DNA of 13,869 nt from a virus (taxonomy: Duplodnaviria > Heunggongvirae > Uroviricota > Caudoviricetes). Below the pieces are notes generated by a model. The model saw nothing but the letters and a program-made list of their open reading frames with translations. It was not told the origin of the DNA and searched no databases. The stretch lies in the IMG/VR virus record IMGVR_UViG_2606217100_000003. One strand, written 5' to 3'. Both the position numbers and the translations under genes were made by a program. Below, one piece after another: positions 1 through 12,705 of the stretch (position 1 is its first letter; the number at the start of each line of letters is the position of its first letter).

Positions 1-750
1 TCAGTCAATTGTTTTGTTTATTCCATCTGTGACGCCGATTATTTTCTCAAAATAATGAGATGGCGTGACACCATAATAATCTTTAAATGCACATATGAAA
101 TATGAAGTACTGTTATAGCCACATTTCTGGGCTACGACATTGATAGAATAAGAGTTTGAAGTTATGAGTTTTTTTGCATACCTCATCCTAGTATCTCTCA
201 ATATTTCAGTAAATGACGTTCCTTCATCCCTTAATCTTTTTTTTATTAAACTTTCACTCGTATAAATCAATTCCGCAATATCTTTTAAATGCCATTGCCG
301 CTCAATATTAAAACTGATTATTCCAGTAATTTTACAGGTAAATGTATTTATATTTGTTAGTATAAAAGAATTTACACTTTCGCGTTTTTTGAACATGGCA
401 AGTAAGGATATACATAGTCTTTCTTTTAACCAAAGGGAGTGTGAGTCTGCTATTTTAATCCCTTCAAACAGAGAAAAAACAAGCGATAATGGAGGTTCCT
501 CTTCAGCAATATAGCCATTCTTATCAAGAGTAAATTTGCCAGGCAGCTCATTATTCACGTCGATAAAAAAGGATAAACATGTTTTCTTATCTATATCAAC
601 AATTCTTAGTTTAGAGGGGCATACTGGTAACTCCCTTCTAATTTTGTCGCTTACAATAAACAATGAATTTTTTTTGAACGAGATAACTCTCCTGTTTATA
701 ATTAAATCAAATGATTGACAGATGAAAACTACGGAGCAAACATAATCCAT
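1..750 (-). CDS. appY: AraC-family transcriptional activator AppY
   Basis: 249-aa ORF with ATG at 750-748 and stop at the window edge. The protein matches my memory of E. coli AppY along its length, including the C-terminal AraC-type HTH region. In K-12 appY lies at the late end of DLP12. Confidence 0.85.
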
Positions 751-1295: not shown

Positions 1296-2459
1296 TTATG
1301 GTTGAATAAGCCACTCGATATCTGGTGCTACGGAAGTGTCCACACGGTTTAGCAGCACCCGATACTTTTTTCAGGCTTCCAGCAACGATCTTTCTTCCTC
1401 CGTTGCGATTTCCAGATCTACAGCATCCTGCAGTGGCGCAATATACGCACTGAATTCCTGGATGTAGAACTGTGTGGTGACGGTCTTCCAGCCATTCGGC
1501 TCCTGCTGTATTGAAGCATACCAGGCTGACGAAAACCAGAGAATGCCATCACGGGTCCAGATCCCGGTCTTTTCGCAGATATAACGGGCATCAGTAAAGT
1601 CCAGCTCCTGCTGGCGGATGACGCAGGCATTATGCTCGCAGAGATAAAACACGCTGGAGGGGTCATCCGGCGTCCATTTGAGGCCAAACGGCGTCTCTTT
1701 GTCGCCAAATTTAAGATACTGCTCCTCCCCGCAGTGCGGGCAGGCAACATGAAAACGCATAAAATGCGGGGATTCACTGGCTGCACGCTCAATCTGGCAG
1801 GTGCCTCTCACTTTGGGCGTGGAGCCACGGATGGACTTTGGCCAGACCGAGCCTTCAATACGTTTGTCGCCAAGGAACGTCGGAGAGCCTTCCTGTTCAA
1901 TATCCTCATCAAAGGCAGCAAGTTCATCATAACCCGCCACATCCACCGACTTTTCACGGTAGTTTTTTGCCGCTTTACCGCCCAGGCACCAGAAGCCACG
2001 CCCATTAGTGAAACGCTTCATGGTGAGCGTGTTATCCCGGTGCTTTTTGCCATACCACGGGGCCAGCGCCAGCAGCGACGGAATATCACGAATAGTCGGC
2101 TCAACGTGGGTTTTCATAAAGTTCTCGGCATCACCATCCGTCGGCAACCAGATAAGGGTGTTGCGCTGCTTATGCTCTATGAAGTAGGCATAAACACCCA
2201 ACAGCATTTTGGAATAACCAACACGGGCAGACTTCACCACATTCACCTCGCGGATGTAGTCGCTGCCCATCGCATTCATGATGGCCCGCTGAAAGGGCAG
2301 TGTTTCCCAGCGCCCTTCCTGGTATGCGGATTCTTTCGGGAGATAGTAATTAGCATCCGCCCATTCAACGGCGGTCTGTGGCTCCGGCCTGAACAGTGAG
2401 CGAAGCCCGGCGCGGACAAAATGCCGCAGCCTGTTAACCTGACTGTTCGATATATTCAC
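1296..2459 (-). pseudogene. Terminase large subunit (lambda gpA) N-terminal fragment fused to a tail-fibre-assembly (tfa) 3' fragment; aaaD/tfaD-like remnant
   Basis: The ORF 2459..1371 (GTG start, as in lambda A) matches lambda gpA from MNISNSQVNRLRHF through about residue 305 (GILWFSS). It then switches to a sequence matching the lambda Tfa C-terminal region (IAPLQDAVDLEIATEEERSLLEA). A TGA at 1373-1371 sits where Tfa has Trp, and the frame continues (KKYRVLLNRVDTS...) to TAA at 1298-1296. Confidence 0.8.
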
Positions 2460-6309: not shown

Positions 6310-7392
6310 ATGAAAAAATTAACAGTGGCAATTTCTGCTGTAGCTGCATCAGTACTGATGGCGATGTCTGCTCAGGCAGCTGAAATTTATAATAAAGACA
6401 GTAACAAGCTGGATCTGTACGGGAAAGTTAATGCTAAGCACTACTTCTCCTCTAATGATGCAGATGATGGTGATACTACTTATGCCCGTCTTGGCTTCAA
6501 AGGTGAAACCCAAATCAACGATCAACTGACTGGTTTCGGTCAGTGGGAATATGAATTCAAAGGCAACCGCGCTGAATCTCAAGGTTCCTCCAAAGATAAA
6601 ACCCGTCTTGCCTTCGCTGGCCTGAAATTCGGTGACTACGGCTCCATCGATTATGGCCGTAACTACGGTGTAGCATACGATATTGGTGCATGGACCGACG
6701 TTCTGCCAGAATTCGGTGGCGATACCTGGACCCAAACAGATGTATTCATGACTGGTCGCACCACAGGTGTTGCAACTTATCGTAACAACGACTTCTTTGG
6801 TCTGGTTGATGGCCTGAACTTTGCAGCTCAGTATCAGGGCAAAAATGACCGAAAAGAAGTAACTGAAGCTAATGGCGATGGTTTCGGTTTCTCAACTACT
6901 TATGAGTATGAAGGATTCGGCGTGGGTGCAACCTATGCTAAATCTGATCGCACTAATAATCAGGTTATCTACGGTAACAACGGTCTGAATGCTTCTGGTC
7001 AAAATGCTGAAGTATGGGCAGCTGGTCTGAAATATGATGCGAACAACATCTATCTGGCCACCACCTATTCTGAAACCCAGAACATGACTGTTTTTGGTAA
7101 TAACCATATTGCCAACAAAGCACAAAACTTCGAAGCTGTTGCACAATATCAGTTCGACTTCGGCCTGCGTCCATCCGTTGCTTACCTGCATTCTAAAGGA
7201 AAAGACTTGGGTGTTTGGGGTGATCAGGACCTGGTTGAATATGTTGATGTAGGTGCAACCTATTACTTCAACAAAAATATGTCCACTTTTGTTGACTACA
7301 AAATCAACCTGATTGATAAGAGCGATTTCACGAAAGCATCTGGCGTTGCTACCGATGATATCGTTGCTGTAGGTATGGTTTACCAGTTCTAA
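6310..7392 (+). CDS. nmpC: Outer-membrane general porin, OmpC family (prophage NmpC/Lc-type), apparently intact
   Basis: 360-aa ORF with signal peptide [23 protein letters not shown], then [17 protein letters not shown]... and a C-terminal ...VGMVYQF ending in the terminal Phe typical of porins. It resembles OmpC throughout and is not interrupted by an insertion sequence. Confidence 0.9.
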
Positions 7393-9454: not shown

Positions 9455-9651
9455 GCTTCACCTCCGCAGAGGTCAGGCGCTGGATGCAAAAAATCGCAGG
9501 TGCATTTCTGCATCTGTGAAGGGAGAAGAGAGTTTGAATTGTATGTGCGCATAAACGTCCCCGTTTAGCGCAGAAGTCACCGGAGTTGTTCAGGCTCCGA
9601 TGACATGATTATGGCGGGTTGATAGCTGGAAATCAAATTGCTTTCATGTCT

Positions 9652-9876
9652 TCAAATAACCTTCAATTTTTCGATTTGGCTTTCTCGATAGGCTATCTCT
9701 TTATGTATTTCATCCAGACGACCTTGATTGTATTCACCTTCAAGAGCGTCCTCGCATATAGCAGTTTCTTCTTCCAAAAGTTCTCTAATTTTTCGCTGAT
9801 GATGTGTCATTCCCTGCCTTGCCCCTTCTGGGGTAGATTCAAATTCTATCGTCACTTTCAACCCTCCTGTTTTCAA
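9652..9876 (-). CDS. Hypothetical small acidic coiled-coil protein (74 aa from TTG, or 52 aa from internal ATG)
   Basis: ORF with TTG start and no clear SD; an internal ATG (MTHHQRKIRELLEEE...) has a weak SD. The composition is protein-like (charged, helical), whereas the antisense ORF is Phe-rich low complexity. No homologue recognised. Confidence 0.3.
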   Translation of the reverse strand: MKTGGLKVTIEFESTPEGARQGMTHHQRKIRELLEEETAICEDALEGEYNQGRLDEIHKEIAYRESQIEKLKVI

Positions 9877-10065: not shown

Positions 10066-10092
10066 TTATAAAAAACCCGCCAAAGCGGGTTT
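10066..10092 (-). terminator. Intrinsic terminator of the 339-aa/NADAR operon
   Basis: On the minus strand: acccgc-tttg-gcgggt stem-loop followed by tttttt, 38 nt downstream of the NADAR stop. Confidence 0.6.
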
Positions 10093-10129
10093 GCAGATCT
10101 GTCACGACAGTGAAAGGAACAACGCCACA

Positions 10130-10747
10130 TTAAAAAAGCGATAAGCTTTGCCCCGAATTCATCGGTAGTGGAGAGAAAGTAACATCACGTATTTGCTCCC
10201 CGAGCAGAAGAAACCTATCCAAGGGTAGCGGCGGTATCGTAGCAAACCCTGAAAGCCCCTTCTTTCTTGCAACATCTCTCGCATCCATAAGGATACGACC
10301 TAACACGTTCATACCATAAAAGTTACCTTCGGAGTCTTTACTAGCCCCCCAAAATTGGTCCTTCTCTGAGTGCTCAACAATGTCATGCTCTCCTGTGCTA
10401 TCCAGGAGCGCGAAAAACGATTCCCAGTTCTGGCAAAGCTTAACGCAGACACACCATTTCATTACCGAAACTCGATTTTTTTCCCAACCTGCACGGGTTT
10501 TAGCTTCGAAAGATCTGGCGGTTTGTTTAGCTTCATAAGGGTTGCCTTGGGTAATAATAGCCTTTTGGATATCTGGATAGTCTGGATATCGGCATGCTTG
10601 GTAAAGAATTTCACTCGATTGAATGGGTATACCATTAACTAAGAGCGGATATCCTTTGGCCATGTTGGAAAGACCACCCCATTTCTCGGTGGTTTTCCTG
10701 AAAGAAACTGTGTTGTGAAACAGGTATAGTCTATAGCTCATGATCAC
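10130..10747 (-). CDS. NADAR-domain protein (YbiA-like, DUF1768; predicted ADP-ribosyl/N-glycoside hydrolase)
   Basis: About 203-205 aa (GTG at 10747 or ATG at 10741 with SD ggtga). Three segments match E. coli YbiA as I recall it. GGLSNMAKGYPLLVNGIPIQSSEILYQACRY matches GDFSNFAAWPIKVDGKTWPTSEHYFQAQKF. WEKNRVSVMKW matches WESVKEQVMRK. IVEHSEKDQFWGA...NVLGRILMDAR matches LVEHTENDAYWGD...NRLGYLLMELR. Confidence 0.75.
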   Translation of the reverse strand: MIMSYRLYLFHNTVSFRKTTEKWGGLSNMAKGYPLLVNGIPIQSSEILYQACRYPDYPDIQKAIITQGNPYEAKQTARSFEAKTRAGWEKNRVSVMKWCVCVKLCQNWESFFALLDSTGEHDIVEHSEKDQFWGASKDSEGNFYGMNVLGRILMDARDVARKKGLSGFATIPPLPLDRFLLLGEQIRDVTFSPLPMNSGQSLSLF

Positions 10748-11763
10748 CGATTATACACATTACGCTTCATAAGTGGATACCAACAATCCAGAGCTCTATT
10801 TCCCGTTCGAAGATAAGTTCCCCACCAGTACGCTAGAGGGGTATTATTGGGGCAGTTTCTGAAAGTAAAGATAGTTCCACCAAACCCAACACCATTGAAA
10901 GTTGAAAAGCCTAAAGGCTTTATAGCATCAGAAGGATTTTGACTCTGACCAAGGATATCAAACCCAACTTTTGTCATAATTGCTTCAAAACGATCTCGTC
11001 TCTGCTCATTAGGGAAAAAATTATTCGCGACGTAACCGTCACGATATGTTCCTAAATAATGTACTTGACCGTCAGCCCATTCAGGTATTGATACACTTTG
11101 CGCTTTTGGCCAAAAAACCTCAGAACTCGAACTGTTTCGGCGTTGATTTTCAACAACTGCAAACTCACCACCATCAACGCAAACTGAAATATTCCTATCA
11201 GCAAATTTTCGTTCAAGTTGTTTTTTTATATTCCATGCTGAATACGTGTGCCCGCCTAAAAAGTACACCAATATTGTAATATTTTGGAGTTCAAAGTGCT
11301 CAATAAACCAAGTTAAATCATTGATTGCCTTAGCTCCTGAGAATGAAACATCGTCAAGGTAAATAAATTCACGGAATGAACTAACTCTTTGACGTTGTGA
11401 CAGTCTGGTCACAACGTTGAATTCTTCTACACAATCTTCGCGAAGCAAATCCAAAAACTCAGATTGACTGGTGCCTTGGTTCTGGATATCGAGAAACGCT
11501 GCGGTTTGAAAGAACCTTTCATTTTGCTCATCATTGGCGATACTACTAATAACTCTGCGATAGTCGCTCTCAGAGAAGTATCCAATCCCCATTAATCGGT
11601 CCGTTTCCTCTAAGACAAATCGCCTATCGGTTAACTCAAATTGATTAATCCATCGATTAACATGATCAATGCTCATGCCACCTTGAGGAGGGTTTCGATA
11701 GTCATTTAATTTAGTAGCAATTTGCCCCATAAGATCACGATCTGTAACATTGCTATAACACAT
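10744..11763 (-). CDS. Uncharacterised 339-aa protein with weak phosphoribosyltransferase-like motif; first gene of the NADAR operon
   Basis: ATG at 11763 with SD agga; its stop TGA (10746-10744) overlaps or abuts the NADAR start. The central FIYLDDVSFSGAKA loosely fits the type-I PRTase PRPP-binding signature (hydrophobic x4, DD, small residues, G). No other family was recognised. The gene is low in GC. Confidence 0.7.
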   Translation of the reverse strand: MCYSNVTDRDLMGQIATKLNDYRNPPQGGMSIDHVNRWINQFELTDRRFVLEETDRLMGIGYFSESDYRRVISSIANDEQNERFFQTAAFLDIQNQGTSQSEFLDLLREDCVEEFNVVTRLSQRQRVSSFREFIYLDDVSFSGAKAINDLTWFIEHFELQNITILVYFLGGHTYSAWNIKKQLERKFADRNISVCVDGGEFAVVENQRRNSSSSEVFWPKAQSVSIPEWADGQVHYLGTYRDGYVANNFFPNEQRRDRFEAIMTKVGFDILGQSQNPSDAIKPLGFSTFNGVGFGGTIFTFRNCPNNTPLAYWWGTYLRTGNRALDCWYPLMKRNVYNR

Positions 11764-11966
11764 ATAGATTCCTGTTCATGCATTGATACGAAAGGGTCAG
11801 AATACTCTTAAAAAAATTTGGTGAAAGCCTGAAAAGTCATAATGTTAACATGTATCACAAATTGTTATTTTTCTCAGTATCTGAGACGTAAACTGAATCC
11901 AAGACCACTAATCTGGCTCAAAAAATTTAGAAAGTTTCTCATAATGAATACTTGCCTCTTTGCCCG

Positions 11967-12602
11967 TCATACACTTGCTCCTTTCAGCCCAAACTTAGCT
12001 TTGATTTCTGCGATCTTCGCCAGAGCCTGTGCACGATTTAGAGGTCTACCGCCCATAACAGGAAGTTGTTTTACTGGTTCAGGTATCGTCTCACCACGGT
12101 TAATTCGCGCTGTCATACAGGTCAGTTCATCGGCAGCCTTGCGCCGTAATTCCGCATCAGTAAGCGCATTGGCCCGCATGTTCTGGTACAGGTTGGTAAC
12201 CAGCCAGTAGTGCGCGTTTGATTTCCATGGATAAGACTCTGCGTCCGGATACAGGCCACGCTTCCGGCAATACTCGTAAACCATATCAACCAGCTCGCTG
12301 GCGTTTGGCAGCCCGGCGGTAACGGATGCTTCTTCCCGGCACCAGGCAACAAACTGCCCGGGTGATGGCAGGAATGGTCGATTCTGCCGACGGGCTACGC
12401 GCATTCCTGCGTTAACCTGTTCCATTGTGGTGATCCCGTTTTCCCGGAAAGCCAGAACCCACTGGCGGCGGATTTCGTTCAGTTCGTTCTGATCCCGGTT
12501 AGCCAGGCTCGCAGGGAAAGTTGCCAGTAACTGGCTGAACACACCGTTGATGATCTGCGCTACCTGCTGTACAGGCAACACGTAAAGATCCAACCAAGCC
12601 AA
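11967..12602 (-). CDS. Replication protein P homologue with replaced N-terminus (P')
   Basis: 211-aa ORF; from VQQVAQIINGVFSQLLATFPASLANRDQNE... to the C-terminal ...AKFGLKGASV it matches lambda P as I recall it. The first ~11 residues (MAWLDLYVLPV) are unrelated. TTG start at 12602 is preceded by SD aaggag. Confidence 0.8.
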   Translation of the reverse strand: MAWLDLYVLPVQQVAQIINGVFSQLLATFPASLANRDQNELNEIRRQWVLAFRENGITTMEQVNAGMRVARRQNRPFLPSPGQFVAWCREEASVTAGLPNASELVDMVYEYCRKRGLYPDAESYPWKSNAHYWLVTNLYQNMRANALTDAELRRKAADELTCMTARINRGETIPEPVKQLPVMGGRPLNRAQALAKIAEIKAKFGLKGASV

Positions 12603-12705
12603 AATCTCCTTACCTCACAACACGGCAAGCCTGCATTGCGGCGCTTCAGTCTCCGCTGCATACTGTCCAGGTGAGCGCGGGTGATGGCATAACAGAGGAA
12701 AGAAA

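Follow-up and report, generated by a model that had tools for sequence, protein, structure and literature searches.

A DS-32-like PRTase-CE/NADAR operon in a decayed DLP12-type prophage of Escherichia coli and its possible phosphoribosyl chemistry

Introduction

DS-32 is an anti-phage system that was recovered with DefensePredictor (DeWeirdt et al., bioRxiv 2025 / Science 2026). A gene pair from an Escherichia coli strain, encoding a phosphoribosyltransferase (PRTase) and a NADAR protein (WP_000097610.1 / WP_032260665.1), was cloned in MG1655 and rated as a defence system, with the result marked as replicated (DefensePredictor). According to a part of the screening table (Table S7), from which the phage range may be incomplete, plating dropped by 10^3.7 for Bas26, 10^1.6 for RB69, 10^0.9 for SECphi18 and 10^0.6 for T5. 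The authors pointed out that the NADAR component alone resembles DarTG and suggested partner swapping between toxin–antitoxin systems (DefensePredictor). Here we describe an operon of two genes, A and B, that very probably belongs to this family and is located on the minus strand of a stretch of 13,869 nucleotides, referred to as the window, from the Caudoviricetes record IMGVR_UViG_2606217100_000003 of IMG/VR. As the best explanation, with about an even chance of being correct, we regard a DS-32 member that occupies the P–ninB slot of a decayed DLP12-type prophage and acts as a DarT–NADAR-like pair using phosphoribosyl pyrophosphate (PRPP).

DarTG1 likewise consists of a toxin gene followed by a NADAR gene; its NADAR protein removes a ribosyl adduct that is N-glycosidically linked to a DNA base, and defence is achieved by blocked DNA replication (PMC11125620, PMC11543638). 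In contrast to DarTG1, the putative toxin of the window has a PRTase fold and a PRPP motif and is not an NAD+-using ADP-ribosyltransferase, and the NADAR protein is of the YbiA type, marked by a Glu, instead of the BC4488 type, marked by an Asp. In the YarT–YbiA pair of Chondromyces crocatus, as proposed here, a NADAR protein of the YbiA subfamily is the dedicated antidote of an adjoining toxic transferase, whereas YarT is an H-Y-E ADP-ribosyltransferase and the YbiA gene comes first (PMC11125620).

Relatives of protein A are found in other defence systems. The effector of type III-A retrons such as Retron-Eco11 is anti-phage, lowers PRPP upon activation and is the protein in which the PNNxP motif was defined; effectors of this type have a winged helix and associate with multicopy single-stranded DNA (msDNA) (PMC12746101). 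Protein A contains a homologous effector domain with the PRPP loop and PNNxP, but the window lacks a reverse transcriptase, the non-coding RNA (ncRNA) or msDNA and the C-terminal winged-helix domain of the effector, and a NADAR enzyme takes the place of the reverse transcriptase–msDNA complex as partner. ShosTA and PsyrTA also combine a toxin of PRTase fold with a partner linked to DNA metabolism, although ShosT is fused to a pyrophosphatase domain and its antitoxin (ShosA) resembles DprA. PsyrT carries a RecQ-like helicase.

Assignment of the operon to DS-32

Protein A passed the equivalog model NF053875 (DS32_1) of NCBIfam with 310.9 bits (cut-off 250), with residues 12-334 aligned to positions 2-322 of the 322 model positions, and protein B passed NF053876 (DS32_2, also an equivalog model) with 259.8 bits (cut-off 240). 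The gene order is that of DS-32 as well, with A followed by B on the same strand, separated by 2 nt or overlapping by 4 nt depending on the start of gene B, and RefSeq names the identical proteins 'anti-phage protein'. Judged by these sequence criteria, there is very little doubt that the operon is a DS-32-family defence operon. The preliminary description of the window had presented it as a candidate uncharacterised system, which no longer applies, given both equivalog matches, the RefSeq name and a relative with experimentally established anti-phage activity. The system is already discovered and named, and its finding as such is not new. As far as the window is concerned, this outcome amounts to an annotation, and the wider value lies in the mechanism.

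The window operon and the validated pair share the order of a PRTase-like A gene and a NADAR B gene, and in E. coli also the P–ninB prophage slot. The window allele represents a distinct lineage, with 52% identity in A and 85% in B, and is followed by an additional open reading frame (ORF) of 74 codons.

Protein A has the fold of type I phosphoribosyltransferases

Over its full length, protein A corresponds to the Pfam family PRTase-CE (PF24390), which was its only Pfam match; the general PRTase model PF00156 did not match. Searching PDB sequences with the A profile yielded a chance match only, so that folds had to be compared. The AlphaFold2 model of protein A (predicted local distance difference test score, pLDDT, 91) contains a type I phosphoribosyltransferase core, and in this predicted model the parallel beta-sheet core superposes on solved PRTases. 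Protein A is a divergent branch of this fold.

The sequence FIYLDDVSFSG had been described as a degenerate PRTase-like motif. Its likeness to PRTases is borne out, but it is a regular, intact PRPP loop with a hydrophobic strand, two acidic residues and a small S/T-G phosphate loop. Among 38 homologues, D138 was invariant and D137, F141 and G143 were conserved to at least 90%. In addition, P305-N-N-T-P309 is invariant in the A family and represents the PNNxP signature inside the C-terminal motif. Consistent with the retron-like signature, protein A matched the PADLOC model PRTase_III-A (5e-10); PADLOC gave no match to ShosT or PsyrT.

Neither Pfam nor PADLOC returned a match of protein A to DarT/DUF4433, and a DarT-like identity is ruled out by the fold, which is that of a PRTase and not of an ADP-ribosyltransferase; the authors of DS-32 likewise concluded that its toxin is not DarT. 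The label 'ADP-ribosylation-related' in the preliminary description is therefore not retained: because protein A combines the type I PRTase fold with a PRPP motif and lacks an ADP-ribosyltransferase fold, phosphoribosyl chemistry is more likely than ADP-ribosyl chemistry. The most variable stretches of A are its N-terminal and middle parts, and in some members of the family, LRR, Sel1 or FGE-sulfatase-like domains, of the kind typically added as sensors, are present at the N-terminus. A literature search found no paper on PRTase-CE.

Protein B is a NADAR protein of the YbiA type

As had been proposed from its motifs, protein B is a NADAR protein, with a PF08719 score of 82.4 bits (gathering score 35.1) and conserved catalytic residues; among PDB sequences it matches E. 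coli YbiA best (2b3w, 3e-12). Across 84 B partners of A-family proteins, E44, the catalytic Glu following strand 2, and R51, at the position of the basic phosphate-binding residue, were invariant, and E123, D128 and W131 were conserved to at least 90%. The residue in the last strand is Asp in DarT1-linked (BC4488) NADARs, His in the phage type and Glu in the YbiA type (PMC11543638, PMC11125620), and Glu123 in the VEHSEKD motif of protein B is the mark of the YbiA subfamily. The C-terminal tail is present in all B partners, with P171, F177 and L179 conserved to at least 90%.

Distribution and strict pairing of the two genes

The module was detected in 62 of 5,426 complete E. coli genomes (~1%), each time as a single chromosomal copy. 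The window type was present in 43 of the carriers, and the other 19 contained a type with 81% DNA identity that corresponds to the validated lineage. A search of 50,697 phage records with the operon DNA gave no match, and the cassette was seen in prophages, chromosomes and plasmids only. With the A-family profile, 1,212 representative proteins were retrieved at E ≤ 1e-3 and 560 at E ≤ 1e-30. The loci examined for the pair comprised 80 with one genome per species and four plasmid or chromosomal records (Vibrio, Methylobacterium, Bacillus cereus and Klebsiella), and spanned Proteobacteria, Planctomycetota, Chloroflexota, Myxococcota, Acidobacteriota, Poribacteria and others.

In 83 of the 84 loci, a NADAR ORF was located directly 3' of gene A on the same strand; the sole exception was a contig ending 81 bp past gene A, and hence the order PRTase-CE→NADAR was conserved in all 83 testable loci and across many phyla. 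A natural single-chain fusion of PRTase-CE and NADAR also exists (P0131, 540 aa). At loci of the short form no third gene recurred, indicating that the two genes constitute a self-contained mobile module; the neighbours were transposases, integrases, RES toxins and unrelated genes.

Participation of the pair in nucleotide, NAD or riboflavin-intermediate metabolism, as a housekeeping or salvage gene set carried by the phage, was another option of the preliminary description. It would be compatible with the PRTase fold of A and with the score of B on TIGR02464, an equivalog-domain model of riboflavin-intermediate N-glycosidases (71.0 bits, just below the cut-off of 73.7). However, B stays under this cut-off and yet exceeds that of the DS-32 equivalog, the pair occurs in merely 62 of the 5,426 E. 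coli genomes, and it always resides in mobile or defence-island DNA, with restriction-modification, BrxR, SMODS and RES genes or transposases nearby. Together with the strict pairing and the defence phenotype of the relative, these observations make a salvage function scarcely credible, and the preference for a conflict system over housekeeping that had already been expressed for the window is reinforced by the same phenotype and pairing and by the embedding in restriction-modification operons described below.

Pairwise identities of A and B proteins were correlated (r = 0.84; 3,486 pairs), and B was the better conserved partner in 98.6% of the pairs. The two E. coli alleles are well off this family trend, being 52% identical in A and 85% in B (90% in the NADAR core), and this asymmetry (10130-11763 versus L086:6934-8566) suggests, at the level of sequence comparison, accelerated evolution of A or recombination between cassettes. 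Co-evolution of A and B is also in line with a NADAR protein that neutralises or regulates A mainly by binding, either like a type II antitoxin or as sensor of an ADP-ribose-like ligand, with its hydrolase activity being secondary. The conserved tail of ~45 residues in all B partners could be the interface for such an interaction, and DarG was stated to bind DarT directly as well (PMC11125620). On the other hand, all catalytic residues of B vary little or not at all among the 84 partners, and the stronger conservation of B than of A, in almost all pairs and with 90% against 52% between the E. coli alleles, fits constraint by a common substrate better than a co-adapting interface. Regulation mainly by binding thus appears improbable to us.

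In one metagenomic contig (L088:2943-7006), the N-terminal domains of an NAD-dependent DNA ligase precede the cassette, and the BRCT domain of the ligase is part of the PRTase-CE ORF; insertion of the cassette into ligA, or else an artefact of gene calling, is the probable cause. A BRCT–PRTase-CE 'fusion' (P0050) resembles a cassette inserted at the 3' end of ligA more than a designed architecture and was not used as evidence.

NADAR fusions to DNA-targeting modules

In 31 of 83 NADAR partners (~37%), NADAR is the N-terminal domain of a long protein and is fused to a DNA-targeting module, namely Methylase_S (HsdS; 24 proteins), a DUF1156 methyltransferase (4) or a ComEA-like helix-hairpin-helix (3). 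HsdM was encoded next to the HsdS fusions at 21 loci, HsdR at 20 and a GmrSD-like protein at 7, and no separate hsdS recurred among their neighbours: in operons with the layout hsdM–(gmrSD)–PRTase-CE–NADAR::hsdS–hsdR, NADAR::HsdS provides the sole S subunit. Examples are hsdM–gmrSD–PRTase-CE–NADAR::hsdS–hsdR in Paracoccus zhejiangensis and brxR–hsdM–PRTase-CE–NADAR::hsdS–hsdR, followed by a SMODS gene, in Aeromonas salmonicida. When one NADAR::HsdS fusion was used as query, nearly all of the best 120 database clusters were full-length fusions, with generic public labels such as 'NADAR domain-containing', 'DUF1768' or 'type I restriction enzyme S subunit'. No paper describing NADAR–HsdS or NADAR with type I restriction was found in a literature search that excluded subscription-only papers. 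As these loci show, type I restriction-modification operons with a PRTase-CE/NADAR module form a widespread class. Among the genes near the DUF1156 fusions were matches to SNF2-family helicases. Because NADAR is attached to HsdS, a DNA methyltransferase or a ComEA-like module in these proteins, we infer that its substrate is located on DNA.

PrrC of EcoprrI is an abortive-infection effector encoded within a type I restriction-modification operon; it is an anticodon nuclease and has no enzymatic antidote. The relatives embedded in restriction-modification operons, as distinct from the window, likewise place a latent toxic effector inside an hsdM–hsdS–hsdR operon. By analogy, this position suggests a back-up that would fire when restriction is subverted. 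The antidote-like NADAR of these relatives is fused to HsdS, a feature that distinguishes them from PrrC, whereas the window copy is free-standing.

The embedding also bears on a further option from the preliminary description, namely that the prophage pair is a counter-defence, in which NADAR strips DarT-type ADP-ribose marks of the host and the PRTase-like protein processes the products. In favour of this option, orphan NADARs of phages are reported to neutralise DarTG1 (PMC11825919), and all tested NADARs hydrolysed guanine-ADP-ribose in vitro (PMC11125620). Nevertheless, K-12 YbiA did not rescue cells from DarT1 (PMC11125620), and protein B is of the YbiA type, neither of the DarT1-linked Asp type nor of the His type found in phages. 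The pair is moreover found inside type I restriction-modification operons of hosts and on plasmids, and the phage genome collection contained no match to the operon DNA. Since a relative confers defence when cloned in MG1655 and the pairing is strict, we consider a counter-defence function highly improbable.

A possible PRPP-dependent mechanism

PRTases join C1 of ribose-5-phosphate to a nitrogen nucleophile through an N-glycosidic bond. YbiA is reported to cleave N-(5-phosphoribosyl)amino pyrimidines (Frelin et al. 2015), and the bond in these substrates is of exactly the type that PRTases form. Proteins of the NADAR and YbiA groups have been proven to act as antidotes of DarT1 and YarT, toxins that modify bases, and guanine-N2-ADP-ribose in DNA is a known NADAR substrate (PMC11543638, PMC11125620). 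In view of the bond chemistry of PRTases, YbiA-type hydrolysis, the antidote precedents and the DNA-targeting fusions, an analogue of DarT–NADAR with PRPP in place of NAD+ is the most economical model.

According to this model, DS-32A would attach ribose-5-phosphate from PRPP to a nucleobase nitrogen. The target would most probably be in DNA, as the fusions of NADAR relatives to HsdS, methyltransferase and ComEA-like modules suggest, and its modification would block replication of the DNA of the phage or the infected cell. DS-32B would hydrolyse the N-glycosidic bond and thereby keep the host free of the modification as long as infection has not shifted the balance. Sensing or targeting is likely to be the task of the variable N-terminal part of A. 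Where the module is embedded in restriction-modification operons, it may serve as a back-up in the manner of PrrC, coupled to the condition of the restriction complex. For the general logic of a toxin with an enzymatic antidote, drawn by analogy, the chances appear to be balanced; it is the best-supported of the options in the preliminary description, which had listed a toxin/antidote or abortive-infection pair with NADAR as antidote, and it was suggested by the discoverers of DS-32, too. That the reaction is a PRPP-dependent modification of DNA bases, again by analogy, is possible, with distinctly less than an even chance. Strict pairing, the natural single-chain fusion, YbiA-type chemistry and the fusions to HsdS, methyltransferases and ComEA-like modules together lead to the hypothesis of DNA-base phosphoribosylation that depends on PRPP and is reversed by NADAR. 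That DS-32 and its relatives as a whole are such a system, with PRTase-CE setting the mark and NADAR erasing it, we put forward tentatively and with more doubt than confidence. The partners linked to DNA in other defence PRTases (retron III-A, ShosT and PsyrT) agree with action on DNA by analogy, but are no proof.

Several observations speak against a DarT–NADAR-like pair using PRPP. The decrease in PRPP caused by Retron-Eco11 was modest (~50%, P = 0.04; PMC12746101), and ShosT, another defence PRTase, was inactive on common purines. In the B clade, an invariant Arg replaces the Lys that binds phosphate in characterised NADARs, and the K95R variant of the E. coli C7 NADAR hydrolysed its substrate in vitro but failed to rescue cells from DarT1 (PMC11543638). 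DNA-binding fusions occur in relatives, whereas the NADAR protein of the window has a short tail only, and protein A of the window is merely 52% identical to validated DS-32A. Furthermore, a promoter scan of the 203-bp spacer upstream of gene A revealed no sigma-70 consensus promoter; in the absence of a clear promoter and with the early promoters of the prophage deleted, expression of the operon is unproven.

The same retron data that make PRPP a plausible substrate would also suit a metabolic form of abortive infection, in which triggered A drains PRPP and hence nucleotide synthesis, and NADAR is a co-effector that regenerates the acceptor by hydrolysing the product. Rather than a toxin and its antidote, the two proteins would then form a futile cycle with the net reaction PRPP + H2O → ribose-5-P + pyrophosphate. 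The activated effector of Retron-Eco11, which is related to A, lowered PRPP (PMC12746101), and PRPP is also bound by ShosT, which disturbs purine metabolism; an obligate two-enzyme effector would account equally well for the strict A–B pairing and for the fusion into a single chain. However, retron PRTases lower PRPP without any NADAR (PMC12746101), the model leaves unexplained why a hydrolase of small molecules should be attached to HsdS, a DNA methyltransferase or ComEA-like modules, and the NADARs of conflict operons have so far been antidotes (PMC11125620, PMC11543638). We regard PRPP depletion as a rather unlikely alternative to the toxin–antidote pair acting on DNA.

If DNA phosphoribosylation takes place, it would be a kind of modification that is so far undescribed, and through NADAR::HsdS, sequence-specific restriction would be linked to a second layer of defence of a chemical kind, or the module would serve to guard the restriction complex. 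The comparative data, especially the NADAR::HsdS operons, sharpen the question of the mechanism into a directly testable hypothesis.

Operon architecture and expression signals

The coordinates of the operon, its proteins and related loci are compiled in Table 1. The two-gene operon on the minus strand is present as proposed, and the stop codon of A overlapping or abutting the start of B is confirmed as well: with the ATG start of B, the genes are separated by 2 nt, and an alternative GTG at 10747 would give a protein of 205 aa and a 4-nt overlap with the stop of A, as GTGA. Both starts are compatible with translational coupling as a prediction from the sequence, and in the validated DS-32 allele the A and B genes overlap by 11 nt. 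The upstream region of about 200 bp, noted before as AT-rich, has an A+T content of 66.5% compared with 55.7% across the window. Within this spacer, the TATTCT box and the AGGA ribosome-binding site are kept in the divergent DS-32 allele of strain L73.

The strong intrinsic terminator predicted at the end of the operon was confirmed by RNA folding, although a simple pattern scan did not detect it. It consists of AAACCCGC-TTTG-GCGGGTTT and a T-run and lies 37 nt past the TAA stop codon of gene B. Rfam at gathering threshold gave 0 matches in the whole window, indicating that no retron ncRNA or riboswitch is present there; no reverse transcriptase or msr/msd ncRNA lies beside the operon, the neighbours of which are P and the 74-aa ORF.

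Table 1. Positions of the operon, its protein regions, the surrounding prophage genes and the fusion loci of relatives. Coordinates refer to the window unless a residue range or another locus is given.
Feature	Position	Strand	Remarks
Gene A, DS-32A-like, 339 aa	10744-11763	-	stop TGA 10744-10746
Gene B, DS-32B-like NADAR, 203 aa	10130-10741	-	ATG at 10741 is the RefSeq start
A/B junction	10739-10748	-	GGTGATCATG; gene B ATG 2 nt past gene A TGA
AT-rich spacer, 203 bp	11764-11966	-	between truncated P and operon
Weak promoter candidate	11820-11825 (TTCACC) and 11799-11804 (TATTCT)	-	15-nt spacer
Ribosome-binding site AGGAAT	11768-11773	-	
Rho-independent terminator	10070-10092	-	8-bp stem, 5 G-C pairs, 4-nt loop, U-run
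Protein A, N-terminal helical domain	residues ~1-88		
Protein A, type I PRTase core	residues ~89-205		PRPP motif FIYLDDVSFSG at 132-143
Protein A, C-terminal extension	residues 206-339		invariant motif PLGF…GFGG…RNCPNNxPL…W…WYPL
Protein B, NADAR N-glycohydrolase domain	residues 14-156		YbiA-type
Protein B, conserved C-terminal tail	~45 residues		
Protein B, catalytic-site residues	E44, R51, E123, D128, W131		roles from PMC11543638
appY	1-750		
Chimeric ORF	1371-2459	-	terminase large-subunit ATPase domain and C-terminus of tail-fibre-assembly protein
nohD; ylcI-like and DUF1398 genes; Rz, rrrD, essD	between chimeric ORF and porin		in layout order
Porin gene, intact, prophage-borne	6310-7392	+	Porin_1, 360 aa; RefSeq 'porin OmpC'
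quuD, rusA, ybcO, ninE, ybcN (ninB-like)	porin to 74-aa ORF		in layout order
74-aa ORF	9652-9876	-	phrog_19187, family of unknown function; RefSeq version 67 aa
Replication gene P	11967-12602		5' end lost
intD	12706 to window end		strand opposite to P
NADAR::HsdS loci	L011, L020, L036, L049, L055, L065, L084, L085 and ~16 more; L089:2903-13113; L090:4586-13092		
NADAR–DUF1156 DNA methyltransferase fusions	L021:4875-9017, L053:5019-8552, L080:5117-8938		1,180-1,380 aa
NADAR with ComEA-like helix-hairpin-helix tail	L035, L056, L061		

Prophage setting

The operon region is 100% identical to the chromosome of E. coli strain SW071614, and the element carrying it is a heavily decayed DLP12-type lambdoid prophage at argU in the E. 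coli chromosome. The cassette slot is P–ninB, between P and ybcN, of a DLP12-like prophage. Both E. coli cassette types occupy this slot in such prophages, in agreement with the prophage hotspot proposed in the preliminary description, and the prophage backbone common to both types restarts at about position 9640 of the window. Within this cryptic remnant, a copy of a rare but validated defence system has remained intact.

The chimeric ORF marks a large deletion of prophage structural genes, and the DNA between appY and the prophage remnant (751-1370) is very AT-rich (~25-28% G+C) and without a sizeable ORF. At the other end, the truncated P directly abuts intD (11967-12705). Compared with the fuller prophage of strain MEI1O2-23 (L001), the entire O/immunity/recombination region is deleted in the window, so that the defence operon has no read-through from prophage early promoters. 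The porin gene is located between quuD and the lysis genes, with AT-rich DNA on either side. The 74-aa ORF lies between the operon terminator and ybcN; together with its flanks, it is part of the window-type cassette and absent from the cassette of the validated DS-32 type. In a prophage with the validated type, a pseudogene of an MT-A70 family methyltransferase (L086:8778-9362) is situated between P and the DS-32 operon, which is a further sign of cargo genes gathering in the P–ninB slot.

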